Shown here in pieces: positions 5,170-56,700 of a DNA stretch of 64,000 nt. Made by a program: the position numbers and the translations under genes. The stretch is from Mobula hypostoma (taxonomy: Eukaryota): contig NC_086097.1 in the NCBI RefSeq assembly GCF_963921235.1, positions 80,292,001 through 80,356,000 on the forward strand. Reading direction: 5' to 3'. Positions within the stretch are counted from its first letter, which is position 1, and each line of letters begins with the position of its first letter. Under the pieces are notes generated by a model, which was not told the origin of the DNA, made no database searches, and worked only from the letters and a program-made list of their open reading frames with translations.

Positions 5170-8003
5170 GACCATGGTGGAATTGTTCAGTACTTTTGGT
5201 CGAAGTATTTATGGGACTACTATTCTTTCGACAAACATTAGGCAGGAGTCCACAGTTGAGGGTGATGTTTGACATCGATAGAAGGGTACAACATTTTCCT
5301 CAACCTTTACTGGGCAACCATCACAGACATATATGAAGGTATTTTGAAGAAGAGAATTTGTGGGTGTTTCTGCTTTGATCTTGTTGACCATGACCAGAAG
5401 ACCTTCAGCAGCCTCCAATACAACACCGGTGGACTTCAAACTCAATTGAAATCATAGCTACAACTGTATCTTCATTTTCACTAACCTGCTGGTTCATCAA
5501 TCTGGAGAGGGCATCTGCCTGACCAAGTTTCTGGGTTGTTGTGTATTTGGTTTCAATATCATAGGCTATTAACATCATTGTCCACCTTTGTAGGCGGTTA
5601 GCTGTATACACTGGGATGCCTTTCTTAGACCCAAAGATGGACAACAAAGGTTTATGATCAGTCAGGAGAGTGAAGTGTCTGCCATTAAGCACTTTTTGGG
5701 ATTCTCAAGGCTTCCTTCTCAATTTGTCCATAGTTCCTTTCATGCATGACAGCTTTTGGAACTATCAGGGAAGATATGAAATATGACATTGGGAGAGATA
5801 TGGAGTTCTGCTTGTAGTTTGGTGCAGCAACCTAAACCTTCTTGAAATACTGCTGCATAGCACTGTTGATGTATGGTCTCACATACTGATGGTGATAGTG
5901 GTGTCGACTTGACATGATTTGAACAGACAACATCTTCATGCAGACTTCAGCCAGAGGGATGCTCCAGCTTATCCATCCAGTCAATTCCAAGGACACTCAG
6001 ATCCCCCTGGTCTGTTAGGTAACACACACCATTGACTTAATTACTGTTCAGCTTCAACGTGTAGTGCAGTTCGCCAATCAGCTGGGGGGTTCTACCCATT
6101 GCACTGCAGGCAGAATGATGAGTCAACTTGACTGGTGGGGCCCCAAGTTCCCGTCAAGTGCATTTGGAAATAATGGCAATGTCTGTCCCATGTCAAGTTG
6201 TAGCTTGACCAACTAATTGTTGATAAATAGGTTGATGTACTGTCTCCTGGGGGCAAAGTCCACTTTGAACGTAACCATTAAATTCCCTGTGGATTTTGAT
6301 CGCTTTTGAAACCTCTTGTCCTTGTCAACACAGTGAAAGATGATGAAAACCTTCTTTGTGACCACAGCAATGGTACTTGCAAATGTGTTTCTTGTATTTG
6401 CAACTTTTTGCATAATACCTCATGGGAGGAGCTAAAGTTGGCACCAAATGTTTTTAGCGGACTCGGGCGACTTCTTTGAGTTCATCTGCGAAACAGTTTC
6501 AATCTTCTGTTCTCATGACTCTTTTTTCCTTTCCAAGGTGGCTGGGGCCCTGTCAGATCCCGTGATCTACAGCTGCACTCAGACTACGTTCTTCACGCGT
6601 GGTGGGTTCTTGCTCTTGGAATTCACCGAGCGGCCTGGCGCTTCGGTACCTCGAGGCGCGGCTTGGAAGGTGTATGCCTTTGGAGTGTGACCTTGTGGAT
6701 GACCCGATTCCTTGCCGATGTCGCTGACTGATGGGTCTTAGGAGATGGAAACATCGGGACAGCAGGCACAGCTGTCGGAGGCCCCTGTATTCTTTCTTGA
6801 TGGTGAGAGAGAAAGTCTGCTGGTTCTTAAGTCAGGGGGAACTTGAGTAAGTGATGCTGCAGACCGTAAAATCAAAACAGTGAGCTGTTGGCCTCCCCTC
6901 CCACTGTGTAAGGAGCAATATCTCTCTCTCCCTCATCAGTGAGAGAGAGGGCCTGTTGAGATGTTGAAGAGTTGGGATGGACAGTAGTTTTTGATGGATT
7001 CTAGGTCATGGTCTCTGGGGGCACTATTGCTTGCATGGTGGGTGGCAGTGGGGGGGCTGCGCTTTTCGCTGGAACAATTTGGGGATGGTGAGGAGGAGGG
7101 TTGATGCTTTGCTGCTGTATGTGCATAGGAGGGGGGAGGTGAGTTTAGGACCCTAACATTTTCTGTCATGCATTCTTTGGGTTTTTTCTCTCTGTTTCGT
7201 GGATGTCCGTGAAGAGTAAGGGTTTCAGATGGTATACTATGTACATTCTCTGACATTAAATTGAACCACAGTTCCAACAAGCTGTGTTTGGCCATTTGGA
7301 GATCTGCTGAGTGATGGTGTTTGGGCCATTGGACACTGCACTGACCATCGTCTTTTCAACCTGGTTGGCATCGTGTTTCAGATTGATATTCTTTAGTGAC
7401 GGCTTATAGAGTCATATCACGGTCTTGCTCCTGTCTGGCCAGGAGCCGTTTGTGAATACCTGCAGTGTCACGTGCCTGAAGTCTGCAAATAAAAATCAGA
7501 TATTTGTGTGACTGTGATTCAATCATGTTACCCAGCTTGAACTTACATTCAGGATTGATGAAACTACCATATGTGATAAAGTCATTGGCGTCTGGACAGT
7601 TTTCATCAAATGATGGGTCCCATGGGTTCTTAGTCAGAATGAAGTTGAAATACTGCTCATGTTCAACAGTACCCAATTTTCAGAGCAAAGTATGTGTTTT
7701 CCACAAGTCATCTTAAATGGCAAATTTGACCCGGAATGCATCTTCGGAGCCCTTGAACCATGATTCAAATGTAACTCCCAAAGCGACATCAAACTGGAAG
7801 TTGTAAATGGATGCAACAACTGACTCACATGAGTCCTATTCAGTATTTGACACCAACGTCGCTGGACTTACTGATAATCTGCTGGTTAACATTTCAATTA
7901 ACTTCAGCTGTGCTGCCTCAAATTGAGCTTGCTGCTGTTGCAGAGCTGTGTGTCTTCTGCTGAAATTGCCATGTTAATATAATACAGCACATCATTGCCA
8001 ATT
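5170..8003 (-). mobile_element. Gypsy/Ty3 LTR retrotransposon internal remnant (gag, protease, RNase H), pseudogenised
   Basis: ORF 5405-5692 GRHFTLLTDHKPLLSIFGSKKGIPVYTANRLQRW...GQADALSRL is Ty3 RNase H. A protease-like QLD(M)G lies near 6200 and a gag-like region at 7300-7970. A PBS-like TGGCAATGA follows the LTR on the minus strand (7992-8000). Confidence 0.85.
6432..7268 (+). mobile_element. Non-coding non-autonomous element with a Rex/Babar-like 3' tail, inserted in the Gypsy
   Basis: Starts aaagttggcaccaaatg (compare 15100 on the minus strand) and ends tttcagatggtatactatgtacattctctgacattaaattgaacc, like the Rex 3'UTR ends at about 2350-2430 and 38490-38550. No RT ORF. Confidence 0.55.
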
Positions 8004-21440: not shown

Positions 21441-22580
21441 CTGAAACTCTACATTTTTCTCTGTAGATACTGCTTGAACTGCTGAGTATTTTAACCATTT
21501 TCTGTTTATTTCCTAGTTATAATATCTTTGGTACTTTGCGTTTGAGAAATGGAAACAATTCTCAAGGGCAGAGAGGGATTGGTGAAATGGGCAGGCATGT
21601 GGCAGGTGAAATTTAATGCAGAGAAATGTTGTTATCATTAGGAAAGCACCATAGAAATCATTTAGAAAGGAGTTCAAGATCAGGAGTTGAACATATTGAA
21701 GGCTTTGAAAGTTGGAAAAGAATTGAACAGCCAGTTAAAATAAATGGGAAAGCATTGGCATTACCTTTAGTATTAAAACAGCCTTGTGCGTGATTTTTAA
21801 AAAAACACATAAAAAGTGAGAACATCAGTTGCAAGGTTCACAGATCAAGGATTTCTGGTTCCATTGTTGAATATGATGCTGAACCTGACACTGATGTTCC
21901 CCACTGAGGTGCTGTGATTTCTCACTGTTCACAGAGTGAAGCACAGCAAGTGCAGTCTTTGCAAGCAATCTTAAGACGCCCATTAAAATGCAAACAACAG
22001 CCTTTTCAGACCACCAGTTAGACCTCACTTAGTACTGGGTGAATTTCTCATTACCTCACTATAAGAAGGATATGATTCACCAGGATTCTGCCAAGATTGG
22101 AAGACTTTAGTTATGAAGAGAGATTGGGACAGGCTGGGTGTGTTACGCTAGAGCAGTGGTCACCAACCTTTTTAAGCCCAAGATCCCCTACCTCGACCTT
22201 AGTGAAATGCAAGATCTACCTACTAAATCGTTTAGAGAAAAAACAGCTCAGATTGTACTTCCAATTTGAGGCCTTTTATTTGTGCGAATTGCATTTGAAT
22301 TACACAAAATACTTATGTCAAACTTTCAAATTAATTCAAACAAGAAAACACTGTAACTAGCATATCAAACAGGCCATAGCTGTCTTTCTTTAAGAATATT
22401 ACAATACTTCACACCTTTAAATCTAAGTTTCATTATTTAATTTTATTTCAACGTGAAAAATAAATGAATAAGTATTGACTGTTGCATTTAGTGTGATGAC
22501 TGGGGCTGAATACTTTCTGCTAGTTCCCTGAAATTTGGCTCATAACTACAGACAGCCAGTCTGAGACAATCTGTAAGGTG

Positions 22581-25500
22581 AAGTGTTGCCAACTGTCACA
22601 TATTCCCCCCGCTAAGGTAGAGCGTTCCTAAGAAAACATTCGTGCCGAAATGCTTTATGCAGAAGAAGCGATGTATATGGAAAAAATTTTTGTGCGTTCC
22701 CAGAGCCAAAAAAATAACCTACCAAATCATACCAAATAACACATAAAACCTAAAATTGTCACAATGGGATGGCATTAGGAGCAAGGGTGGACCCAAATGC
22801 AAGACACATCTTGTGAGGTTACTTAAATTTAGTTTATTGTTTGAAACCAGGAGAGCAAGGCAGGAGTAGGAATAGTGAACTGAACAAGGACTGAGGACTA
22901 CAACTAGGCTGGGACCAAGGGTCTGGGCTAGGACTCGGAATCGGCTCCCAGAACTAGAGGAGACATGAGGAGGCTAGGGTATGGACTCTGAGCCAGAGAC
23001 TGGGCAAGGACCCAGTACCTGGGTCTTGCCTGGGGCTCGGACCCCAGAACCAGGCATGGACATGACATGGGCGAGGGAGAGGAGGAACATGGGAACACAG
23101 AGCCTCGGTCTCGGGAGAGCAGGTACATGGAACCATGGACACATACACAGAACACAGAGCCGGGACCCCTCCTTGGGTACAGGACATAGGGCCGGGACTC
23201 ACACACAGAACAGAGAGCTGGGACCCATCCTTGGGTACAGGACATAGGGCCAGGGCTCATGACTCGTGACCCCCCGTGGGGCAACGGCAAGACGGCCTGA
23301 CTTACCCCATGGAGGCGAGGACAAGACACGACAAGACATGATCCCTGTGGGGCAACGGCAAGACGGCCTGACTTACCCCACGGAGGCGAGGACAAGACAC
23401 GACCAACACGAAAGAACACCAGACAGTAGGACAGGAATCACAGACCACCAGGGCCAGGACTTGACTCGGAACGTGGTTGCCGCCAGGGGCAGGACTTGAC
23501 TCGGTACTTGAATGCCGCCGGAACCAGGACTTGACTTGGAGCCTCCGGGTAGTGGCGAGCTCTCAACTCGGCCCGGGAACAGTAGATAGCGGTTCCTGAT
23601 TCCTTCCAGCAGGTTAACTGACGGACCCACCTTAGTGAGGAAAATGTGCAGGCTCGCTTTGGTGAGGTTACTTGACAGGGTTGCTCCGGTGAGGAAAAGC
23701 AAATTACCGGCACTCGCTTTGGGTGGAGACTAGGCTTGCTGCGGCCAGATAACATTGGCACGCCGTACCTTAGTGACTTTGCAAATGATCTCGCGCCGAA
23801 CAGCTGAAAGCTGGAGACTATAAACTACTGGTTCAGTCGAGAGTAAATTGCCTCTAATCACCAAGGCCAAGGGATACGGGAAAACAGGGAACCAAAGGGA
23901 AACAGGGAGTCAACGGTCCGGATCATAACATAAACAAAATAAATTTAAAGGGACCCCGATCTGGACCATGACAGTACCCCCCGCTCAATGGGAGCCTCCA
24001 GGTGACCAACAGATTTGCCTGTATTATCGATGACCCGGGTGAGTGGGAGGGATTTGGCTGGTGGGCAAAACAGAACAACACCTTGACTTTCAGGCTGACA
24101 AGAGTTTGGAAAAACAGTTTGTGTCTGCTGGGTCCACGTTTGGCGAAAGTGTTCTATCACAATGGGATGACATTGGGAGCAAGGGTGGACCCAAATGCAA
24201 GACACATCTTGTGAGGTTAATTAGATTTAGTTTATTGTTCGATATCAGGAGAGCAAGGCAGGAGCAGGAATAGCGAACTGGACAAGGACTCAGGACTACG
24301 GCTAGGCTGGGACCAGGGGTCTGGGCTTGGACTCGGAATTGGCTCCCAGAACTAGAGGAGACATGAAGAGGCTACAGTATAGACTCCGAGCCAAGGACTG
24401 GGCAAGGACCCAGTACTTGGGTCTTGTCTTGGGCTCGGACCCCAGAACCAGGCAAGGACATGACATGGGCTAGGGAGAGGAGGAACATGGGAACACAGCG
24501 CCTCGGTCTCGAGAGAGCAGGTACATGGAACCATGGACACATACACAGAACACAGAGTCAGGACCCCTCCTTGGCTACAGGACATAGGGCCGGGACTCAC
24601 ACACAGAACAGAGAGCCGGGACCCCTCCTTGGGTACAGGACATAGGGCCGAGACTCATGACTCATGACCCCCCCGTGGGGCAACGGCAAGATGGCCTGAC
24701 TTACTCCATGGAGATGAGGATAAGACATGACAAGACATGCCCCCCCCCCGCGGAGCAACGGCAAGACGGCCTGACTTACCCCACGGAGGCGAGGACAAGA
24801 CACGACCAACACGAAAGAACACCAGACAGTACCTATCTAGCTCCGGTGATAGAACTAGACCGAGGTGCATGCGAGGGCTGAAGACGAGGGCTAGAGGCGA
24901 GAGGGGCAGAGAAGGGATTCAGACGGGAGTAAGAGAGGAATCACAGACCGCCAGGACCAGGACTTGACTCGGAACTTGGATGCCGCCAGGGCTGGGACTT
25001 GACTTGGTACTTGGATGCCACCAGGGCCAGGACTTGACTTGGAGCCTCCGGGTAGTGGCGAGCTCTCGACTCGGCCCGAGAATAGTAGACAGCGGTTCTT
25101 GATTCCCTCTGGCGGGTTAACTGACGGACCCACCTCGGTGAGGAATCTTTGCAGGCTCGCTTTGGCGAGGTAACTTGACAGGGTTGCTCTGGTGAGGAAA
25201 GGCAAACTACCGGCACTCGCTTTGGGCAGAGACTAGGCTTGCTCCGGCCTGATGACATTGGCATGCCGTACCTTTGGTGACTTTGCAAACGCTCTCGCGC
25301 CGAACAGCTGAAAGCCGAGGCTATAAACTACCGGTTCAGCCGAGAGTAAATTGCCTCTAATCACCAAGGCCAAGGGATACGGGAAAACAGGGAACCAAAG
25401 GGAAACAGGGAGTCAACGGTCCAGATTGTAACATAAACAAAGTAAATTTAAAGGGACCCCGATCCGGACCATGACAAAAATGACACTAACATATAGTAAA

Positions 25501-25727
25501 AGCAGGAATGATATGATAAATACGCAGCCTATATAAAGCAGAAATAATGAAGGTTAAGCCAAAACCGATTTGTGGGGTAAAAAATTCGGCACGTACACGC
25601 TTGCGCACACAGGTGCCCGTGCAAGACTTCATGGCCATGGTAGTCTTTCTCCGGGTAAACACAAGTGTCCCGGGATTTGACAGCTACTTTTGTCCCTTAT
25701 TTGGGAGTGAGAAAGTTGGCAACCCTA
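22581..25727. mobile_element. hAT-type MITE (about 420 bp without the LTR insert) inside the transposase C-terminus
   Basis: TIRs aagtgttgccaact / agttggcaacccta; imperfect 8-bp TSD gtaaggtg (22573-22580) / gtgaggta (25728-25735). Confidence 0.7.
22757..25476 (-). mobile_element. Non-autonomous LTR retroelement: LTR 22757-23973, 181-bp internal region, LTR 24155-25476
   Basis: Two ~1.2-1.3 kb direct repeats with tgtca..tgaca termini and an exact 5-bp TSD aaaat (22752-22756, 25477-25481). PPT gagcggggggtac lies next to the 3' LTR. A PBS and gtggacccagcagac (MDPAD-like gag start) lie next to the 5' LTR. Confidence 0.92.
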
Positions 25728-25839
25728 GTGAGGTATCTGTCAGTAAGTCAGCTCCTGTACTTAGATTTAATAATTTTCATCTGTGAAAATGCAATTTCAC
25801 ATAGATAAGTTGACCCAAAGTAGGCACTGACTTTTAGTT

Positions 25840-26601
25840 CTATAAAACTAATGCACACACCGCGCGTTGCTTGGCTCCATCAGTAGTAATTGCCACCAGT
25901 TTATGAATGGGGATGTCATTTTCACGGACATATTTTTTAAACTCATTGTAAATATCCTCACCTCTCGTTCTTTCCTTTAATTGCAAAAGAGTGAGGAAGT
26001 CCTCCTTTGTTGTAAAATCCTGGAAAGCCATTCTGACAAATACAACAAGCTGAGCTGTTTGCATTACATCCACGGATTCATCGAACTGCAGTGAAAAATA
26101 TTCACATCCTCTGACAGTGACTCTACCCTCCTTGTCACTGTTGCAGGGCCAGGCAGCATATTACGTATTGCGGTTGTGATGCTGTTTTTGTTTTTTAAAG
26201 TCATTAAAAACAGTCTCTGCGGTAATGTCCATTGCTTCCCTGAATAAGTCGCCATCTGTAAAAGGCTTCTTGTGTTTAGCCAAAAGGTGACTTACATGAA
26301 ATGATATTTCAATAGCAGCCTTATTTTGAGCAGCATGTTTTGTGGAAAACGATCGCTGGGCCTTCAACCCTGATTTCAGCTCAACTTTCCAGGCACGAAT
26401 TGCGCTCTTTGGGAGGTAGGTGTCTTTAAATTTCTGGTGGTTGGTGTTGTGGTGCCGCTCCAGATTCCCTCTTTTAGTCAGTGATTGTGTTTGGTGGCAC
26501 AACATACATACACACTTGTCTTTCACCAAGGTAAACAGAAATTCTTCTTCCCATTCTGGATGGAATTTGTATGTTTTTGCCTTCTTTCGTGGAGCCTCCA
26601 C
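25840..26601 (-). pseudogene. hAT transposase remnant (GTF2IRD2/SPIN-like), frameshifted
   Basis: FHPEWEEEFLF..CVCMLC..NLERHH...H (BED-like zinc finger), KPFTDGD, AQLVVFVR..TRGEDIY..ITTDGA. A C-terminal STYLCE..FS dimerisation motif lies at about 25730-25830 and continues at 22490-22580. Confidence 0.9.
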
Positions 26602-27896
26602 TATGCTATCGGGATATCACGAGCGATTGCTGATTGCGTCGCCACTGATCTGGGCCGACATTCACGTGCCAGGTGGCACCTAATTAATTAGCTGGTTTAT
26701 TTCGGCTTTTTTTCTTAAAGATGTGCTGTGTGCATCTCGACTACAGCTGCACCGCTGCTTGCTTCGCGGCCCGGAGGTTGGGGACCACTGCCGTATATGG
26801 ATGTTTGTGACAGTCTGTACTCTTATCTAATCTGATTGGTCACTTTGATGCAGCACAGGCTACGCTGAAAACGTGGTGCCTGGCGGGGGAGCTACACACA
26901 TGCACACTGTGCAGAAAGAACGGAACTAAACCCCACAACCAGGAAACAATCTCTCTTTACAAACAGCTTTTTAGCGAAAATATTGCTATATTACCATTAT
27001 CCTAATTAGTATTACTTACTTTTATAATGCTCACATTACAACAGTATTTGTGTATTTGTTTTTGATTTTTCTTCAGGATCTACTGGGAAAGTCTCAAAGC
27101 TCGACCTGTCGATCGCGATCAACGGGTTGGCGACCCCTACCCTAGAGTGAAAGAGCTGAGGAATAACCTGATAGAGATACACAAAATAGTAGAGGCAAAG
27201 ATGAGAGGCATAAACTCTTTATCTCATGGTGGGGGTGGGGTATGAAAAGGCACACGTTTAAGATGAGAGGAAAGAAAGATGAGGCCCAAGTATTTTTGCT
27301 CAGAGAGTGGATCATACCTGCCAGAGCAGGTGATGAAACTGGATTCAATTACTATTTTTGTGACATACTTAAACAAGCACTTGAATAAAGAAGTCATAGA
27401 ACAATACAGTCTCAACATGAGGAAATGGAATTAGTATAGATGGGCAAGAATGGGTGGGATGAGCTGAAAGACTTGTTCCTGTGTTGTATGATTCTTTGAC
27501 TCTTTCTTTAATTGGGGAGAGTTGCTACTAACTACATGAATGCTGCAGTCTTGGGAGGAGAGTGCTCCCATCTGGTCTAAGGGGTCAGAACTATTTGATG
27601 GAAAGCAATGTCTGCAGGAGGTGAGTCTGTGCATTGGGGACATTGACATTTCCACAGATAAAATGCCTTTGCCCACTCTTGCTCTTGTAGCCCGAACGCA
27701 AAGGTAGATGAAGTTCCTTCTCATTGAGAATGGAGTCTGGGTGGGTCTCCCTAACAGAACACTGAGTCGCAAACTGTAAGATATGACAGAGATCATTAGC
27801 CTGAATAGCTATTGTGGTGACGATACTGAAAGTGATTGTAATCCTGATCTCCGTGGGTAAGGCAGTCCAGGAACATACACAAGGTTGTGTTTGTGG

Positions 27897-28728: not shown

Positions 28729-29058
28729 TAGAAGTCAGAGACCTCAATAAGAGCAATGGCTGTAGTTTGACTTTTAGCATTTGAAACAGCAAGTACATTG
28801 GTATTTTCAATTTTGGTAAATTCAATTAAGAACAGTTGTTTCTCAGACCAGTGAGGCTGAAAATCTGATGGGAGACTGTTTTTGCATGATGTCACTTGAT
28901 AAAATTTTATTCAAGGAAGTAATGCAACGGGGGAGTAAAGTTGCATCAAGAAATGAGAAGGGACGTTTACTGAAGGGGCTTAGGTATGTAAAGTGAGTGT
29001 ATAATTATAAATAAACTCTCTTTTTGGGCTTCCAGCCAGGTACAGGGATCGATTATAG

Positions 29059-29097
29059 CCGACATTTCGATGACAAGCTCTGCCATCTTCTTCAGGG
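29059..29097 (-). ncRNA. Minimal type-I hammerhead ribozyme motif in the Poseidon-type pLTR
   Basis: Minus strand reads cc-CUGAAGA-a-GAUGGCA-gagcu-UGUCAUC-GAAA-ug-UC-gg: full core and a 7-bp stem II, but stem I is only 2 bp. Confidence 0.6.
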
Positions 29098-31907
29098 ATG
29101 ATGCCTGGGCGTCCAGTTGAGTGGTATTTATACCACCATAGTCATCCCTCCTGATTGATAGTCCTCATCCAATCAGGTTTCCACCCTCCCATGTTGTTTA
29201 TAATCGAATTCCAGTTCTTACTTGGAGTGAGAATTTTGTATTTGTTAAAACTTTTTTTCCTCTAGTTTTATTTCAATGACTTTCTTTACCAGGCAGTCCC
29301 AAAAGTCATTGGCATGGCACTGTAGTTTTGTGCCATCGAAGTCGATCCAATTGCCATTGTGAATGCAGTGGTCTGCTACCGCTGATTTCACCGGATAACA
29401 GCTCCTGTGCTCCTTGATGCGAGTTTCCACCGTGAGTCCAGTCTGGCCAACATATGCCACTCTGCATTCACAGGGAATCCTGTAAATGCCAGCGGACCCG
29501 AGTCCCAGGTCATCTTTGATTCGCGTAAGCTGTGACTTGAGCTTTCTTATGGGTTTGTGGATGGAATTAATTCAGTATTTCTTCAGGATCCTGGTGATCC
29601 TTCCAGAAACTGTGGAAATTAGGGAATACAGGCGGTAGTGATGGTTCCTCCTCATTGTTAAGTTACCTGATTTTTCTGCCAGCCCTTTTCAGGGCCGATT
29701 GATTTCCTTCACATTCTGTAGGATCATCATGCATAATTGTCTCGGGGAGACTCTCTGGGCCCAAAATAGTTTTCACATGGTTAATCAAGATAGAAAGAAC
29801 CGCTCTACATTGGGAGGTGTGATGGTGGCTGTTATTGTTGAGTTATAAGTCCGTGTGAGTAGGTTTCCAACAGATGCTATGTCCAAGGCTACCGTCCAGT
29901 TTCTATCGCATTAAGATGTCCAAGAACAGGAAGCAACCATTCTTCTCCATCTCCATCATAAATTGAATGTTTGGATGGATGCTGTTCAGATGGTCATGGA
30001 ACTGCTGGAGTGCTGGTGACCCTGAGGCCACATGATGAAGGTGTCATGGACATATCTGAGGAAGCATTTGGGACATAAGGGTGATAAACTCAGAGCCCTC
30101 TCCTCAAAGTCCTCCATGTAGAAATTAGCAATAGCCAGCAACAAGGGTGACCCCATGGCCACTACTTCTGTTTGTTCATGGTAGTCCCCCTTGTAGAGGA
30201 AGTACGTCGCTGTAAGGGTGTGTTCATGAAGGTACCCTTATCTAACCACGATCACGAGAGGACCAAGCTGTCCTTAATGGGAGCTCTTGTGAACAGGGAC
30301 ACCACATTGAAACTCACCATTATGTCGTCCGGGTTCAGCTAGTTGAAATCAGTCAAATTTGTGACGTGATTCTCACAGCCCCCAACAAAGGGAGACAGCA
30401 TGGTTATCATATGTTTAGCAAGGCAGTAAGTCAGAAAATCTATCGCACTGATGATAGGCCTCAGGGGGGAACCTTCCTTGTGTATCTTAGGGAGCCTGTA
30501 AAGTCTTGGTGGTTCCGGCAGTATGTGTCTGCTGGCAGCCCAGATTTCTTCAGTAAAGCAGAGGTCATCCTGACAATCAAAACTATGGGACCCCGCTGTA
30601 GAACTCTGTAGGCAGGATTGTCCAGAATCTGTTGGACTTTCCTGTGATATTCCTTGGACAACATCAGGACCATTGCATTTCCTTTGTCCGCTGGTAAAAT
30701 CATGATGGCTGGGTTTCACCGTGGTGCCTGGAGGGCCAGTCGCTCTCCTTTTGTAATGTCCAGTTTCGGCAAAATGGCTCTTTTTAGGGCAAGGTAACCT
30801 CCATCCTTACCTCCTCCGTAGTATCCGTTGGGAGTTTTCAGGTTGCTTGCTCTACTCCGCCAGTGTGGTCCCAATAAAGTATGGCCCAGGGGACTGGAGT
30901 GAAGTTTAACCCCTTGGCGAGGACCGATCTAGTCGCTTTGTTGATGCTTCGTCCTGTTTGATTGATGACAATCCTTTCTGGGTCCAATGGTGGGATGGCT
31001 GCACTTCAACTGGATAGTTTGATGTATTTCCTGACATGCTTTGGTCATATTCCTTCATGAAACTAGTTCACCTTGGGCAGCTGTGGACCTGTCAATGTAC
31101 TCCCAATCACCAGGAGACAAGAAGGCTGACAGTCCCAGGTGAAGGGACAATCATCTGTTCGCGTTGATGTCCAGAGCAGATCTAATGTAATGGATACACT
31201 CCCTGATCAACACTCGGCCAGTTCATCATAGATTGTGTTAAGCCTCTGGAGAAATCAGCGTGGAACGCAACCTCACGAACATAGGAATGATGTCCTTGCC
31301 CCAGCATCTCAGAAGGAAGGCTAAAGGACAAAGAATCCTTGCCTTCTCTTTATACAATGATTCAAAACGATGGATATTGCGGTGAACTACCTTCCCATAG
31401 AGGTAAGTGAAAAAGGATCTACTGCTTTCCTGGCGTATATGAACTCTTCTTGGGCTTCCAACCACGTACAAATATTGATTATAACCAAAGATTCGATGAT
31501 AAACTCTGCCATCTTCTTCAGGGATGATGCCTGGGCAAGTCTAGTCCGGTGGCATTTATAACCTTGTGTTCCATCCCTCCTGATTGGTTAGTCCTTATCC
31601 AATCAGGTTTCCGCTCTCCAACATTGTTTACAATCGAATTCCAGTTCTTACTTAGAGCGAGACCTTTGTCTTTGTTAAAACTCTTTTCCTCTAGTTTTAT
31701 TTCAATGTCTTCCTTTACCAGGCAGTCCAAAAAGCCATTGGCATGGTACAATGGTTTTGCGCTGTCAAGGTCAATTCTATGGCCATTGCAAAAGTAGTGT
31801 TCCGCTATCACTGATTTCTCTAGGTAATCCAAATAGATACACCTCTTGTGCTCCTTGATGCGGATTTCCCACCACATGTCCCGTCGGGCCCGATATATGC
31901 TGCTCCA

Positions 31908-32460
31908 TATTGGACATGGTGGAGGATTACAAATATCTGGGGATACGAATTGACAATAAACTGGACTGGTCAAAGAACACTGAGGCTGTCTATAAGAAGG
32001 GTCAGAGCCGTCTCTACTTCCTGAGGAGACTGAGGTCCTTTAACATCTGCCGGACGATGCTGAGGATGTTCTACGAATCTGTGGTGGCCAGTGCTATCAT
32101 GTTTGCTGTTGTGTGCTGGGGCAGCAGGCTGAGGGTAGCAGACACCAAAAGAATCAACAAACTCATTCGTAAGGCCAGTGATGTTGTGGGGATGGAACTG
32201 GACTCTCTGACGGTGGTGTCTGAAAAGAGGATGCTGTCCAAGTTGCATGCCATCTTGGTCAATGTCTCCCATCCACTACATAATGTACTGGGTGGGCACA
32301 GGAGTACATTCAGCCAGAGGCTCATTCCACCGAGCTGCAGCACAGAGCGTCATAGGAAGTCATTCCTGCCTGTAGCCATCAAACTTTACAACTCCTCCCT
32401 TGGAGGGTCAGACACCCTGAGCTGGAGATCAATAAAGTATGACTATGACTATGACTATAT
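31908..32460 (+). mobile_element. Young Rex1/Babar LINE 3' fragment inserted in the Penelope element
   Basis: Uninterrupted frame YKYLGIRIDNKLDWSKN..RLYFLRRLRSF..SFLPVAIKLYN, then aataaa and a (tatgac)n tail. Confidence 0.9.
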
Positions 32461-32546
32461 TTACAAGAGATCCTGTAAACGCCAGCTGACCCGACTCTCA
32501 AGTCATCTTTGACCCACATAAACTGTGGCTTGAGCTTCCTTATGAT

Positions 32547-33677
32547 TTATACCTCAACAATAACAGCCACTATCACACCTCCCAATGTATTTTTGTTTTT
32601 TTTCTACTTTGATTAAATAAGATTATTATCCACAATGTTCCTACAGAATGGTTACAATGTTAAGGAAATCAGTTGGACCATTAAAAGGGCTGATGGAAAA
32701 ACCAGGAAACCTAACAATGAGGAGGATCCGTTGCTACCTCCTATCTTCCCTATATTTCCATTATTTTTGGAATAATCCCCAGGGTCCTGAACAAATACCA
32801 TCCACAAACCCGTAAGGAAGCTCAAGTCACAGCTCATGCGGGTCAAACGTGACCTGGTTTCAGGGTGGCTGGTGTTTACAGAATTCCCTGTCAATGCAGA
32901 GCAGTGTATATCAGCCAGCTGGGACGCACAGTGGAAACCCGCATCAAGGAGCACAGGAAGTGTACCCGTTTGGGTTACCCAGAGAAATTGCCAGTAGCAG
33001 AGTACTGCATTCGCAATAGTCATAGGATTGACTTCGATGAGCCAATGACTGGTAGAGGAAGCCATTGAAATAAAACGAGAGGAAGAGTCTTAACAAAGAT
33101 GAAGCTCTCGCTCTAAGTAAGGACTGGAATTCGATTGTAAACAAGATGGGAGAGTGGAAACCTGATTGGATAAGGACTAACCAATCAGAACGGATGGAAT
33201 GCAGGGGTATAACTACCACTGGACTAGACTTGCCCCGGCATCATTCTTGAAGAAGTTCTTGGTTCTTGGTTCTTGGTTCTTGATCCTCCAAAATATTCTG
33301 CATGGAATTTAAACTGGGGGTGGCGGAGGGTGGGCTTAAGAAGCAGATTTTTGAAGAAGAAAAGCTGCCTTAAATTTAATTGGGTTTGGTTGTGTGACTG
33401 TGTTAGGATTAAGATTATTCCATGCTATAATTGTGCGGGGGAAAAATGAATTGCTGTACACATCTAACTTGGTAGTTAGTATCTCAAATTTAGTTGAGTG
33501 CCCTCGTCTGCTCCTAATAGGTTTGGGTTTGATGTGGGATTGGTAGTCTATGTTGAGTTGACCATTTAACATTTTGTAAAGTTGGCTAAGTTTATCATTG
33601 AAACATCAGTTATAATTGATACTTGCACCCGGCTGGAAGCCTGAGAAGAGTTTACTCGTCATATGTGCCGGGAAAGG
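32547..33677 (+). mobile_element. Inverted 3' copy of the Poseidon-type Penelope element
   Basis: Reverse-complement similarity to 29012-29850; ORF 32865 AGVYRIPCQCRAVYISQLGRTVETRIKEH (GIY-YIG). Confidence 0.85.
33256..33580 (-). mobile_element. CR1/L2-group LINE 3' end with (ccaagaa)n tail, inserted into the pLTR
   Basis: ORF 33336-33572 RSRRGHSTKF..YSNSFFPRTIIAWNNL; ttcttgg repeats at about 33256-33282. Confidence 0.7.
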
Positions 33678-39631: not shown

Positions 39632-40640
39632 AACATCTCCTTGCTGTCGATCAACACTGGTGCACCTTAGGGTTTTGTGCTTAGCCCACTGCTCTACTCT
39701 CTCTATACCCATGACTGTATGTCTAGGCATAGCTCAAATACCATCTATAAATTTGCTGATGATACAACCATTGTTGGTAGAGTCTCAGATGGTGATGAGT
39801 GGGTGTAGAGGAGTGAGATATGCCAACTAGTGAAGTGGTGCTGCAGCAACAACCTGGCACTCAACATCAGTAAGACGAAAGAGCTGATTGTGGACTTCAG
39901 GAAGGGTAAGATGAAGGAATACATACCAATCCTCACAGAGGGATCAGAAGTGGAGAAAGTGTGCAGTTTCAAGTTCCTGGGTGTCAAGATCTCTGAGGAC
40001 CTAACCTGATCACTGATGCGTTTATAAAGAAGGCAAGACAGTGGCTATACTTCATTAGGAGTTTGAAGAGATTTGGCATGTCACCAAATACACTCAAAAA
40101 TTTCTATAGTTGTACTGTGGAGACCTTTCTGACAGGCTGCATCACTGTCTGGTACGGGGTGGGCACTGCACAGGACCGGAAGAAGCTGCAGAGGGTTGTA
40201 AATTTAGTCGGCTCCATCTTGGGTACTAGCCTACAAAGTACCCACGACATCTTCAAGGAGCTGTGTCTCAGAGAGGCAGCGTCCATTATTGAGGACTTCC
40301 AGCATGCAGTGCATGCCCTTTTCTCACTGTTACCATCAGGTAGAAGGTACAGAAGCCTGAAGGCACACACTCAGTGATTCAGGAACAACTTCTTCCCCTC
40401 TGCCATCCAATTCCTAAATGGACATTAAATCCTTGAACACTATCTCAAGTTTTAAATATACCGTTTGTATATTATTTCTGGTTTGCAAGATTTTTAATCT
40501 GTTCAATATACATATACTATAATTTATTTATTTGTTATTATTTTTCTTCTATGTTATGTATTGCATTGAACTGCTGCTACTAAGTTAACAAATTTCACAA
40601 ACATGCTAGTGATAATAAACCTGATTCTGATCCTGATTCT
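39632..40640 (+). mobile_element. Rex1/Babar LINE RT and 3' fragment
   Basis: aaatttgctgatgatacaacc (KFADDTT), KTKELIVDFRK, LLPSGRRYRSLKAHT; aataaacctgattctgat tail. Confidence 0.9.
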
Positions 40641-41222
40641 GGTAGAGTAGACAGGGAGAGGTGGTAGAGAGGAGGTAGAGAGGACAGGGAGAGGAGGTAG
40701 AGAGGACTGGGAGAGGAGGTAGAAAGGACTGGGAGAGGAGGTAGAGTGGACTGGGAGAGATGGTAGAGAGGACAGGGAGTGGAGATAGAGAGGACAGGGA
40801 GAGGAGGTAGAGAGGACGGTGAGGCAGTAGAGAGGACAGGGAGAGGAGGTAGAGAGGACTGGGAGTGGAGGTAGAGAGGACTGGAAGAGGAGGTAGAGTG
40901 GACTGGAAGAGGAGGTAAAGAGGACTGGGAGTGGAGGTAGAGTGGACTGGATGAGGAGGTAGAGAGGACTGGGGGAGGCGGTAGAGTGGACTGGGAGAGG
41001 TGGTAGAGAGGACAGGGAGAGGAGGTAGAGAGGACTGGGGAGGCGGTAGAGTGGACTGGGAGAGGTGGTAGAGAGGACAGGGAGAGGAGGTAGAGAGGAC
41101 TGGGGGAGGAGGTAGAGAGGACTGGGGGAGGCGGTAGAGAGGACAGGGAGAGGAGGTAGAGAGGACTGGGGGAGGCGGTAGAGAGGACAGGGAGAGGAGG
41201 TAGAGAGGACTGGGGGAGGCTT
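40641..41222. repeat. Purine-rich minisatellite, ~22-bp unit gtagagaggactgggagaggag, about 26 copies
   Basis: Directly visible tandem array with variant units. Confidence 0.95.
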
Positions 41223-41249
41223 TGAGTGGACAATGATGAAGGTGATAAA

Positions 41250-41962
41250 AATTACAAGAGGATCTTGATCAGCTGACTAAGGAGGCTAAGGAAGGGTTAA
41301 TGGAGTTTAATTCAGTTAAGTGTGAGGTAGTGCATTTTGGAAAGTAAAATCACGGTAGCACTTTGGTAGGATCCTGGGAGTGTTCTAAAATAGAGGGACC
41401 TTCAAGTTCAAGTGCATGGTTCCCTGAAAGTGATGTGTTAGGTAGACAAGAAGATGAAGGACAGTTTAGACACCTGAGCCTTATTTAATTTGGTTGTCCT
41501 GCTATAGGAAGGATGTTATTAAACTGGAAAGAGTGCAGAAAATATTGACAAGGATTTTGCCAGGACTTGAGGGAGAGGTTGGATAGGCTCGGACTTTATT
41601 TCCTTGAGTGGGGGAGACTTAGGTACGATCCTATAGATGTGTATAAAATGATATGGGGCATAGACAGTGTGAATGCACACAGTTTTTTTCCTGGGAATAG
41701 GAATCAAGAACAAGAGGGCATAGATTTAAGGCGGCCAGGGAAAGATTTATTAGGAGCATGAGGTCAACTTTTTTACACCACGGGTGATATATGTGTGGAA
41801 TGAGCCTCCTGAGGGAGTGGTTGAGGCAGATCCAGTAACAACTGGTAAAGGACAATTGGACAGGTACATGTATTGCAAAGGATATGGGCCAAAGCCTGGA
41901 AAAGCTCGAGCTGGCACCGACCAGTTGGGCTGAAGGACGTGTTCCCATGCTGTATGACTCTG
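41250..41962 (+). mobile_element. Old CR1 3' fragment
   Basis: atggagtttaattcagttaagtgtgaggtagtgcattttgg (MEFNSVKCEVVHF); ends ccatgctgtatgactct. Confidence 0.75.
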
Positions 41963-52152: not shown

Positions 52153-53727
52153 TTTTTTTTTTAATTTTATTTTTATTTGGATAAGGAGTTCACAATTATC
52201 ATGTACTTTTTTCACACATATAACCTTTTCCATTTTTTTATATGTATAAAACTACAATTATTTATACATTCTTAAGTACACATTGAGATGATATAAAAGC
52301 AAAATAAACATTTAAATAGATAATTATGTACTGTGGTAAATCTAACCTATTTGGCTAGGTAATGAAATTAGTTGTTAAGAAAAATGGTAATAATAGTTTC
52401 CATACAACCCTTCTGGACCATTTCCACTGGTCCAAAATGTTGCATACAAGCCTATATACCAACCATTGTAGGTGTTTATATCCCAATTTGTTCGTGCTTG
52501 TTCCTGCCCGCAGACATAATTATCCAATCCCTATGTACTTATTTACTTAATTTTTTCATTTTTTTTTATCCCTTTTCCAAATCTTTCCCTTTACTTGTGT
52601 TAATTCTCTATTTTCCAAAAAAAAACAACAACAAACATTTAGACTAGGGGTGCTTACGTTAGCAATATTACTGTGTTGATGAGAAGAGCAATATAAATCA
52701 TTAGGAGAGTCATCTAAAGTCTGCTCGCATTGGGGTTATATATTCAATCCATTTATTCCAAATTCGATAGAATGTTTCTTTTTGAGTTCTCAGGGAGTAG
52801 GTCAACTTTTCCATTTTAAATATTTCCAAGATAATTTCGTACCAATCTTCTAATGTAGGTGGTATTGGATTTAGCCATTTTCTAGTGATTGATTTCTTAC
52901 TTGCCGCTAAGAGGGCCTGTAGCAACTTTATATCTTCCTTCTGTTCAAGGAACAATACATGCCCCAAATAGAGCGTCTCAAAGTTCAGAGGTATCTGGGA
53001 CCTAAGTACCTTAACTAATGTTCTATGAATACCTTCCCAAAATAGACTTAATTTAGGGCAATCCCAGAAAATATGAAAATGATTTGCCTCCTTAGAGCCG
53101 CACCTTCTCCAACACATCACATTTGTATCTTTATATTTTTCCTGATATGGGGTCTTGAAGTATCTTATAATGTTTTTCCAACAATGTTCTCTCCAAGTCA
53201 AAGAATTAGTCGAGGACCATTGAAAGCTGCAGATTTTCCCCCAAGCCTCCTCTGAAAGTACCAACCCCGCTTCTTTTTCCCACTTCTCTTTAATATACAG
53301 TGTATTTACATTTTTAGCATGGGAGAGTGCATTATATAGGCGAGAAACTGCTTTACTAGGTATTGAACTGCAAGCCGAATTCAGAATCTTGAAAAATTCT
53401 AATTCTACTGTTGATAGGTCTGTATATCTACAACTCTGGTTAACATAGTTTCGTATTTGAAGGTACCTAAAAAAGTCATTATGTTCTAGGCCATGTTTGT
53501 CCTGCAGGATTTGGAAACTTTGTAATACTCTTTTATCTATAAATGAGAGGTAGGTTGTAAGACCTTTCTTTATCCATAGCTCAAATCTTTTATCTCCTCT
53601 GTTGGGAAGGAATTCGGTATCATATGCACACCATCTAAAGAGTTTTAGCATGTTATTAATTCCACATGAATTAACCACCTTCTGCCATACTTTTAATGTA
53701 AGATTTATCCAAGCATTATTAAATTTT
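52153..53727 (-). mobile_element. Young 5'-truncated L1/Tx1 LINE with poly(A) tail and TSD
   Basis: Open 322-aa frame 52710-53678 with CWRRCGSKEANHFHIFWDC zinc knuckle; T-tract at 52153-52162; TSD ccctcgtgctttt at 52144 and 53728-53740. Confidence 0.92.
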
Positions 53728-56700
53728 CCCTCGTGCTTTTAACTACATAATGCAGGTTTTCAACTGAAATATCCTGATGAATTGGATTTGTTCTCCCCAG
53801 AGATACACAGACTGGTCAATGTCAGCAGAAGAGATATTAAGTGGTTTGTCACTGCATAAATTATGTTATTTACCATCCTTGCATTTTTCTCAACAAAACC
53901 TTGTCTAAAAGCCTGCATAGATTGCTTGATTGGTGTCAACAATTTTCAAAGCAGCACTGCTCTAGTTTGCTTCAAATTACCAGTGGAGTATTCCTTCTAA
54001 ATGTCTTGACAGAAAAATACATATGACCAAGGGTGATAGCTTCTTCTCTAACCAAGTAAAAACTTCTGAAGAGCTGATTTATACTTTGTCCAGTTTCAAA
54101 GCATGTCACAAAATTACAAATATCACATTTTAAGGGATTATACATTTTAAATTGAAAAAGACTGTTGATTTAATTCCATGTACTATTTTATATGGGTCTG
54201 CACCATTTTGCTTCATTATAAGTCAAGTCAATGAATAACAGTCTACCTGGGGGATGGTCATAATCAATAACAGTTGTAAATTGGAGATCAATGAGGTGGA
54301 ATTGCTTCATAATTCATTGCTCTCCTAAAATTAATGCTCTCATTTCTCAATTATGTTTTTTTTTCACAGCGGCATTTGAACAAGCTGTTGACATGTTTTA
54401 CCTCTGATATCATTGTTTTACAGTACTAGGATCATACAGAACATAGTTTTATCAGATTAAATCACTGTAGATTGTTCTTACATGTAAAACACCAACTGTT
54501 TCATGGTTTGTATTTTTCTGATCAGTGATAGTCCTTCCAATGGATTTAAGAAGTGAATATTTAGAATGCAAAAAGTCAACTTTTGTACGTATAAAGCACA
54601 TAAATTTGATTTATTTGGTTAACGTTGATAGTGCACTTGTTAAATCAATTGTAGTGACAGCATTATAACAGAGTATAAAATGTAATAGCATCCTAGCAAG
54701 GGAAGCTCTTTAAGTTGTCTTTAATAATTATAGTTGGAAATTCCAACTCCTGAAAGTAAGTGTATCATAAAGTATGAGTGCTTTTTACCTCTGTCAAGTT
54801 TGGTGCTTGGATTCCAATATTAAATCAAGCAAAACATTTTGTAATGCCTTTTAGGTCTTCAGCATGATCAAGGTGCCAAACAAGGAGTTGAAGAGGAAAG
54901 TCTGCAGAACTGGGCCCATTTCCAGTGGTCTCTCCGTACCTGACTAACCCAGAACAAAGGCAAAGGTGGGACCTCTGCACCAAACAGACTTCAATTAGGC
55001 ATGGCAAGAGTGGTTGGAATTTATTCAATTATAAAAGGCCAAGTTAAAGGGCAGGTCTGCTGTCAAAATTGTGAACAGATATAAAGATTTTTAAATGCCT
55101 GACAATGCTTTTGTGTCTCTTAAACAGAGGTCAATATTCAGAACAGATGCCCTCTCCACTACTGGAAATATTTTAAATTTGGTCTTTTCTGATTCTGCAG
55201 AGTTTCACTACACATTCCCAGTGTCTACCTGTGCTTGTTCCAAGTGTCTTTGGAAGTGTAATATAGAATTTGAAGAATGAAGGAGCCTAGAACAGTGTGG
55301 CAAGTAGGAACTGGAGAAGGGTTTGAGAAACATGCACTGCACATATGTGCCTTGGAGTTTAACCCCAAATGGTAACACTTGTGGAGGTATGTAGTAGAAC
55401 TGGTACACATGAAAACAAATATATATGGCCATCTTGTGTGGTTACAGTTTGTGCATGTGTTGACAGATGTGTGGGTGTTAAGTGGTTTGTGTTAGGGCAA
55501 CTTCTGGAGTTATGGAATATAGCAAATATTAATTTCATCAGCAACCAGTCTACAGATCTGAATATGGACTGTAGATTGAGTTTAAAATGTAGCTCAGAAC
55601 AAAGGTGTTCTTAGAGCTGCAGAGTAGGGTTGATTGTAAACCAGGAAATACCCCATTGACCTGAGATCTTTGCATATGCATGAATGTAGCAACAATGGTG
55701 ATTAACACTGATATTGGGTGTGTTGGTGTGAAGATATAGGTGTTTTAAAATTATGTGCAACTCAAAGGAAGTATTATGAATGCATTGTAACGATAGAAAT
55801 TGTCCTGTTCTTACCTTTGTTCTTTAACATATAAAAATGTTATGTAATATTGAGTCAAGGATCCTCTATCCAGAGTGACTCCTAATGTTGTCATTTTGTG
55901 TGCCAAGTAAAGACTTTTATACTACCAGATGCATCTCTCCAGTGGCTTTCATTTACAGCCAAATGAGTCTCCAATTGTGTTAGAATTCCTTGACAAGACC
56001 AACACCTCACTCTGCTAAGTCTGTGTGATAGTTTGTTGTCAATAGATATCCCATGTTAAAATAATTCATCTTCCATTTCTTACACCTGGAGTGGAAGTAA
56101 AATCATCTTCAACCTCAAAGAACTATCAAAGAAGTAATTGTACCAGTAGTAGGAGCTGAGGGGCACTGGGATCTCCTCAGCTCCTAACCAATTGTTACCT
56201 TTCAACCAAACTAAAATGTCACTAAACTAAAAGATCAGTTCATTCATTTGGGCTTTTGAGTTTATTTTAAGCAAATTGACTTTTATGTTCAACAATGTAA
56301 TAGGGACAACAGTTCAAAACTAATTCATTGGTTAAGGAAGACAATAGGATACTGTCAGCATAACGATGATTCCTAAGTCTCACCAATGTCCACTAATAAA
56401 TAGCAATTAGTGTGCAGAACTTATGTTTGTAAATTTGGAGTTATTAGCATCTGGTGCCATGAGGCATAAATTTAGAGTAGATGTAGGTGGGACGTTGTTT
56501 TAAAAATCAGTTTTTCAGCGAGGTTTTTTAGTCTCTTTTCTGTTGTTAGGGAACAAGCAAGAGGATGAGAAAGATGAGACAGAAAAGCTTCATCATCTCA
56601 CTGAGTGGTGGAGCAGGTTTAAGAGTCCATGCGCCTTACTTCTGCTCCTTGTCATACATTCATATTCCGCTGCAAGACTCGGTCTCAGTTTGATTGAACA

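Follow-up and report, generated by a model that had tools for sequence, protein, structure and literature searches.

The locus examined here, within a window of 64 kb (the whole stretch of DNA that was analysed), raises the question of whether an LTR element with almost no interior is the relic of a longer retrotransposon that lost its coding region by chance, or a copy of a non-autonomous family that moved in this short form. The element amounts to 2720 bp in total and lies on the minus strand, as do all of its signals and coding remnants described below. It consists of a 5′ LTR of 1322 bp (24155..25476), an interior of 181 bp (23974..24154) and a 3′ LTR of 1217 bp with TG...CA ends (22757..23973), flanked by the target site duplication (TSD) AAAAT. 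The left copy of the TSD (22752..22756) was recognised in the sequence and in empty-site contigs, and the right copy (25477..25481) in the sequence. The exact 5-bp duplication, the two long LTRs and the short interior were all found at the positions proposed in the initial annotation. Contigs in which the left flank ran straight into position 25477 numbered 57, 57, 7 and 145 across four sequencing runs, and the TSD was independently confirmed, since empty sites were present in all four. The TG...CA termini and the 4-6 bp TSD of a non-autonomous LTR retrotransposon were thus both found, with one of the four LTR ends decayed (the 5′ LTR terminates in TA where the other LTR has CA), together with a primer binding site (PBS) and a polypurine tract (PPT) at the ends of an interior that has no enzyme-coding capacity.

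The 5′ LTR was divided into a predicted U3 of approximately 178 nt, an R region of approximately 1.09 kb and a short U5, all with predicted borders. The predicted poly(A) signal AATAAA is located at 22833..22838 in the 3′ LTR, 82 nt from the LTR end, where it is the sole hexamer of this kind, and at 24231..24236 in the 5′ LTR; a hexamer so near the 3′ terminus of the LTR is described as typical of Sushi LTRs (PMC3601003). The internal tandem modules noticed earlier were present in both LTRs. They comprise a 58-bp unit (2.1 copies) and a 75-bp unit (1.9 copies) at 24535..24806, corresponding to 23137-23259 and 23272-23403 in the left LTR, the second unit measuring 71-75 bp over both LTRs, and a 35-bp unit (2.7 copies) at 24948..25043, corresponding to 23448-23540. 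Many joints in the contigs of relatives skipped or repeated the 58-bp and 71-75-bp modules, and module number is therefore variable among LTR copies. An indel between the LTRs had been placed at about 24830-24935 with a length of roughly 100 bp; its existence was confirmed, and its limits were corrected to exactly 100 bp at 24828..24927, with a 4-bp microhomology. The two bins of this segment, absent from the left LTR, were covered at 0.70-1.27 times the median LTR depth in runs X1, X5 and X9. In the more distant X19 they reached 0.18 and 0 of the median, where LTR bins without coverage were not counted as absence. On the depth in three runs an insertion into the right LTR was rejected; the left LTR has most likely lost this segment. 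Of the 1216 positions at which the two LTRs could be aligned, 1113 (91.5%) carried the same letter, which corresponds to a K2P distance of 0.091 with 79 transitions and 24 transversions. The differences affected 70 of 1084 non-CpG sites and 33 of 130 CpG sites and were spread evenly along the LTR. Since the LTRs differ by 8.5%, the copy is old.

The element was inserted into other mobile DNA. Its immediate host is a MITE (22581..25727), which would measure 422 bp without the insert and has terminal inverted repeats matching at 14 of 17 positions; this MITE is a high-depth, high-copy sequence whose empty sites are common in the contigs. The MITE lies in turn within an outer hAT-type DNA transposon on the minus strand (22154..27139; terminal inverted repeats 12/16, TSD 7/8), which contains a Spin-doc zinc-finger remnant at 26161-26616, so that the nest has three levels. 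An additional hAT-type terminal repeat was observed within the outer element at approximately 26660-26790, ending at 26790. The repeat types suggest that the host is a cartilaginous fish.

The interior had been described as a PBS, a vestigial MDPAD-like gag start, a spacer of about 140 nt and a PPT. This order was found again, and the spacer itself resembles coding remnants. Behind the PBS, the first 15 gag codons (VDPADT...) and a stop occupy 24090..24137. The stretch 24023..24087 holds a probable remnant of the linker between integrase and chromodomain, VLFCPPAKSLPLTRVIDN, with an upper boundary uncertain by approximately 20 nt. It is followed at 23985..24020 by a stretch that probably derives from the pol tail following the chromodomain and that ends in a stop; the resemblance of this tail is weak and was judged by eye and by motif. 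The PPT, with 3 nt ahead of the 3′ LTR, is found at 23974..23986. The chromodomain is absent from the interior, where the short tail with its stop precedes the PPT. In zebrafish, Pol sequences just ahead of the chromodomain read VLYSPL...PPPPRLVDG or VLSSPF...PPPPRIIDG (PMC8672886), and the linker remnant resembles them by eye. The spacer thus probably consists of pol coding remnants, the linker and then the tail. A zebrafish gag-pol element (Table S1, row 24, PMC8672886) has the AATAAA, a similar U5 word, the LTR end, a PBS starting with GAAC and the MDPA start, and shares its layout of U5, PBS and gag start with the present element; the gag start codon has decayed in the present copy (VDPADT versus MDPA in zebrafish). 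If these assignments are right, the joining of linker to tail without a chromodomain implies two deletions. The sequence suggests that the chromodomain was lost first, before the bulk of gag-pol, because pieces from run X19 (organism F) retain the linker-tail junction with unlike sequence upstream. Protein searches with the interior frames returned five and two candidates, with none at E values up to 10, and a further one returned four matches, the three inspected being unrelated repeat proteins. An Atlas search with these frames gave no match, another protein search gave one weak match to a ribosomal protein, and Pfam gave one weak match below the cut-off. All six interior frames scored negatively against a profile of seven integrase-chromodomain proteins.

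The PBS, formed by the first 12 nt of the interior (24143..24154), is predicted to be of the self-priming type. Eleven of its 12 nt can pair with the predicted first 12 nt of the RNA (25287..25298), and no other 12-mer of the LTR reaches even 10 pairs. A TATA-like hexamer (25322..25327), the only match among four TATA-like words scanned, lies 29 nt before the predicted start. Within a window 25 to 36 nt downstream of this hexamer, 2 of 2000 shuffled PBS sequences equalled the observed pairing. Without the TATA prior the match is unremarkable, because 100 of 2000 shuffles equalled it by pair count anywhere in the LTR and 31 of 100 were as good in an energy-based test without a position prior, which was not significant. 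At two of the three imperfect primer positions, the letter that would restore Watson-Crick pairing made up 92-98% of the X1 and X5 depth, and the primer of the left LTR was more decayed than that of the right. Priming by a tRNA 3′ end was rejected because TGG is missing from the beginning of the PBS. Elements of the Tf1/sushi group are characterised by a PBS that complements the 5′ end of their own RNA instead of a tRNA 3′ end, a trait found here relative to a predicted start. A second predicted duplex pairs the U5 arm (24185..24206) with the gag-start codons at 24120-24137, most pair probabilities being 0.97-1.0, and none of 1000 shuffles gave a stem as stable. When the 1204-nt RNA of the present decayed copy was folded, the primer duplex was not formed in the prediction. 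Compared with the three-duplex "pretzel" structure, the U5-leader duplex was strong, the primer duplex was complementary yet unfolded, and the third duplex did not emerge clearly. Self-priming through such a structure is described as common to the Tf1/sushi group (bioRxiv 10.1101/2022.12.06.519325, PMC6317226, PMC4600332), and the present element probably primes reverse transcription with its own RNA rather than with a host tRNA. This layout, together with that of the zebrafish gag-pol element, supports the origin from a sushi-like Gypsy element put forward in the initial annotation. Its further statement that all cis signals were retained proved too strong: the PBS and PPT are kept, while one LTR end reads TA, the gag start has decayed and three of the twelve primer pairs are imperfect.

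Contigs from four of 23 sequencing runs (X1, X5, X9 and X19) were aligned to 23914-25713 at 80% likeness. The pieces considered individually are the 32 longest, with 45,370 further pieces beyond them, and may be biased towards diverged copies; sums of contig depth are not copy numbers. Seven of the 32 pieces touched the interior, and two bridged both interior junctions with at least 31 letters on each side. Record 1 of X1 spans 23989-24223 with 34 differences in 235 positions (14.5%), and record 25 of X9 spans 23944-24219, from LTR to LTR, with 20 differences in 276 (7.2%); the latter could be an orthologue of the present copy. X1 record 2, X5 record 17 and X9 record 26 cross the first junction with margins that are possibly too short. 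Six interior positions showed an alternative letter, supported by 12-22 contigs for X1 and by 15-30 for X5 and accounting for 82-99% of the depth, where one diploid locus could yield two. Interior depth exceeded the single-locus level throughout in X1 and X5, and the median LTR depth was 48- to 121-fold that of the middle interior bin in the three organisms. The outer LTR end gave 100 loose ends in X1 and 100 in X5 with an agreement of 0.34-0.35, as expected of many different neighbours. The contigs are short and no listed piece spans the whole stretch, which places the flanks and TSDs of the relatives themselves outside their reach. The short interior was thus found in contigs from three organisms, 7-15% diverged and with many distinct contigs per individual, so that the short structure is common to several copies, as in a non-autonomous family. 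We claim its presence at several to tens of loci, without an exact count. The interior junction is accordingly not unique to this locus, and the view that the element is not a chance deletion held; of the proposed test for a multi-locus family, half was borne out: the same short interior occurs in diverged relatives, and neither different target sites of the other copies nor an autonomous partner was encountered.

Relatives derived from the present locus should differ from this copy by no more than the 8.5% that separates its LTRs. X1 record 1 exceeded this value (P = 0.0016, uncorrected), and X5 record 17 did so weakly (P = 0.035), while for the other three of the five X1, X5 and X9 pieces the divergence did not significantly surpass that between the two LTRs (P = 0.09, 0.80 and 0.57). 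Because record 1 diverges more than the LTR pair, the interior junctions probably predate the present insertion. The left LTR carried the majority letter at 19 of 24 scorable sites at which the right LTR departs from the majority, which implies that most LTR differences arose after insertion. Gene conversion is able to make LTR pairs appear young (PMC7251063); no long conversion tracts were detected between these LTRs, with 5-15 differences in every one of 11 full 110-bp blocks. The argument for a deletion before insertion is supportive, not decisive.

Three other histories were weighed against these data. In the first, a single element was shortened after insertion and then multiplied at the DNA level, as MITE or hAT cargo, through segmental duplications or as tandem LTR-interior-LTR arrays. 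The nesting of the element in a high-copy MITE, itself carried by a hAT-type transposon with recognisable ends, would suit such a course, and tandem arrays are described as common for TRIMs (PMC4717578). We nevertheless regard it as unlikely: descent from the present insertion does not predict a relative whose divergence exceeds that of the two LTRs, the junction between LTR and flank is not bridged with 31 letters in any listed piece whereas empty sites are frequent, and the sequence that remains comprises exactly the cis signals of retrotransposition. A second reading, which we consider quite improbable, attributes most of the interior depth to longer elements, autonomous or cargo-bearing, and supposes that only a few loci came to share both junctions, by repeated deletion or by gene conversion. 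The small number of listed pieces that firmly bridge both junctions would agree with it, as would two X19 pieces that keep the linker-tail junction and then run into unlike sequence upstream for 153 and 298 letters. These X19 pieces hint at longer relatives of the element. In X1, X5 and X9, however, the middle interior bin was not depleted, the depth of the three bins varying 1.4- to 2.7-fold, unlike the 39-fold in X19. The same reading is also opposed by a 3-nt insertion next to the first junction, found in 4, 9 and 2 contigs at 37-100% of the local depth, and by the absence of a loose-end cluster at the interior junctions among the entries listed, beyond which there are 1923 more. In the third, a full-length element was inserted and then lost its interior in a chance event unique to this locus. 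This would accord with an old copy that has suffered at least one other deletion (of 100 bp), yet it is very improbable given bridging contigs that differ by 7-15% from the present copy in more than one organism, provided that these are not assembly chimeras.

The element was inserted as a unit with its 5-bp TSD, and its short interior recurs in diverged relatives. In our judgement it is most likely a dead copy of a non-autonomous family that originated through internal deletion in a Gypsy element of the Tf1/sushi type (a chromovirus) and was mobilised in trans. An ancestor would have lost the chromodomain segment, and a descendant would then have lost nearly all of gag-pol. U3 would drive a transcript of approximately 2.5 kb starting at about 25298, whose first 12 nt would anneal to the PBS, next to the U5-leader stem, and thereby start reverse transcription with no tRNA involved. 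The first gag codons may have been retained because they form part of that stem. Gag, reverse transcriptase/RNase H and integrase would be supplied in trans by an autonomous relative, and integration would generate the 5-bp TSD. The long LTRs would reflect the long R region of the parent and not LTR growth. After insertion the copy would have decayed, and the left LTR would have lost its 100 bp. The excess of LTR over interior depth in the present family fits a trend described in a grass, where solo LTRs form more readily if long LTRs enclose a short interior (bioRxiv 10.1101/710657).

Searches of proteins and sequence collections did not find an autonomous partner that shares the LTR ends. 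Gypsy pol was not encountered elsewhere in the window, where there was one weak match (E 0.04) at 5468-5704. One repeat is present at 29018-33255 in three partial copies, of which one is inverted relative to the other two, with reading frames that we take to be Penelope-like; a 22-bp minisatellite with strong strand asymmetry lies at 40600-41285; and the longest open frame in the window, a 342-aa stretch at 52710-53738, is presumably the C-terminal part of an L1/Tx1-type ORF2. A collection scan with the motif spanning the PPT and the LTR gave no viral match and one metagenome match, L001, which is what remains of a Gypsy element and includes a Tf2-like SH3 domain. Positions 3577-3603 of L001 share 25 of 27 nt with the PPT-LTR junction, of which a 20-nt portion is identical, which hints at a conserved plus-strand priming end; its likeness to the window is limited to these 27 nt. 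We assume the relatives of L001 to be fungal. L002-L005 were rejected as relatives; they are chance matches with no Gypsy content and no further similarity. Among titles and abstract openings, a scope that leaves Repbase, Dfam and subscription journals outside, neither a self-priming non-autonomous vertebrate family nor the present family in rays was encountered, which is a weak negative.

With the Tf1/sushi group the element shares a PBS complementary to the predicted RNA 5′ end, a duplex formed between the LTR and sequence next to the PBS, an AATAAA not far from where the LTR ends on its 3′ side, an MDPA gag start directly behind the PBS and a proline-rich linker ending in R-x-D (PMC8672886). 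It differs in having no gag, protease, reverse transcriptase, RNase H, integrase core or chromodomain, and its coding remnants resemble the group, as judged by eye, through linker and tail only, the domains being absent. Its LTRs of 1.2-1.3 kb are about twice the mean of 572 nt of a Sushi training set (PMC3601003). TRIMs, including the fish Helenus, likewise have two LTRs, a PBS, a PPT, a TSD and a non-coding interior, and an origin by internal deletion with mobilisation in trans has been proposed for them (PMC4717578, PMC10886601); TRIMs are shorter than 1 kb (1.5 kb at most), whereas the present element measures 2.72 kb. LARDs share non-autonomy and LTRs and, unlike the present element, exceed 4 kb with a long non-coding interior, and TR-GAGs keep a gag ORF where the present element has 15 codons and a stop (PMC13570524). 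The ribozyme, tRNA or 5S sequences of retrozymes and TRIMp3 (Helenus, Ajax, Cassandra) were not found, with no Rfam match at E values up to 1 and no tRNA gene in the element. The element therefore works like a TRIM and stands outside the size or content limits of TRIMs, LARDs and TR-GAGs. Its proportions, at first described as the opposite of those of TRIMs and LARDs, are not new: in sugar beet, 65 of 115 non-autonomous LTR families have short interiors, most markedly the long-LTR ones (Maiwald et al. 2026, PMC13570524). The same source regards the classes that have names as the extremes of a continuous range, in which the non-autonomous class of 1.5-4 kb lacks a name. The beet families resemble the present element in lacking coding capacity, in keeping PBS and PPT and, in some, in decayed pol or chromodomain remnants; they are plant elements with tRNA-derived PBS motifs, while the present one is an animal element with predicted self-priming (PMC13570524). 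Non-autonomous LTR families also occur in fish (PMC10886601).

A broader proposal, which we put forward tentatively and consider rather doubtful, is that the family is a natural minimal replicon of a vertebrate self-priming Gypsy element, with all cis signals including packaging contained in the LTR and 181 nt. The promoter, self-primer, U5-leader stem and PPT would all lie within the LTR and 181 nt, and the packaging signal would reside in the 1.1-kb R region, in which case the LTRs could not shrink as they did in TRIMs. The short family may also have supplied a large share of the solo LTRs of this LTR family, because the three interior segments are about evenly deep in three organisms and LTR depth is so many fold higher. 

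The present finding leaves the knowledge of what kinds of non-autonomous LTR element exist unchanged. In annotation terms, an element of 1.5-4 kb with a tiny interior is too long for the TRIM size class and too short for that of LARDs (PMC13570524). If our reading is true, the family would mark the cis sequences required by a vertebrate sushi-type retrotransposon, its copy-to-copy variation would support self-priming in the sushi-type group, and an apparent gag remnant could persist as RNA structure.
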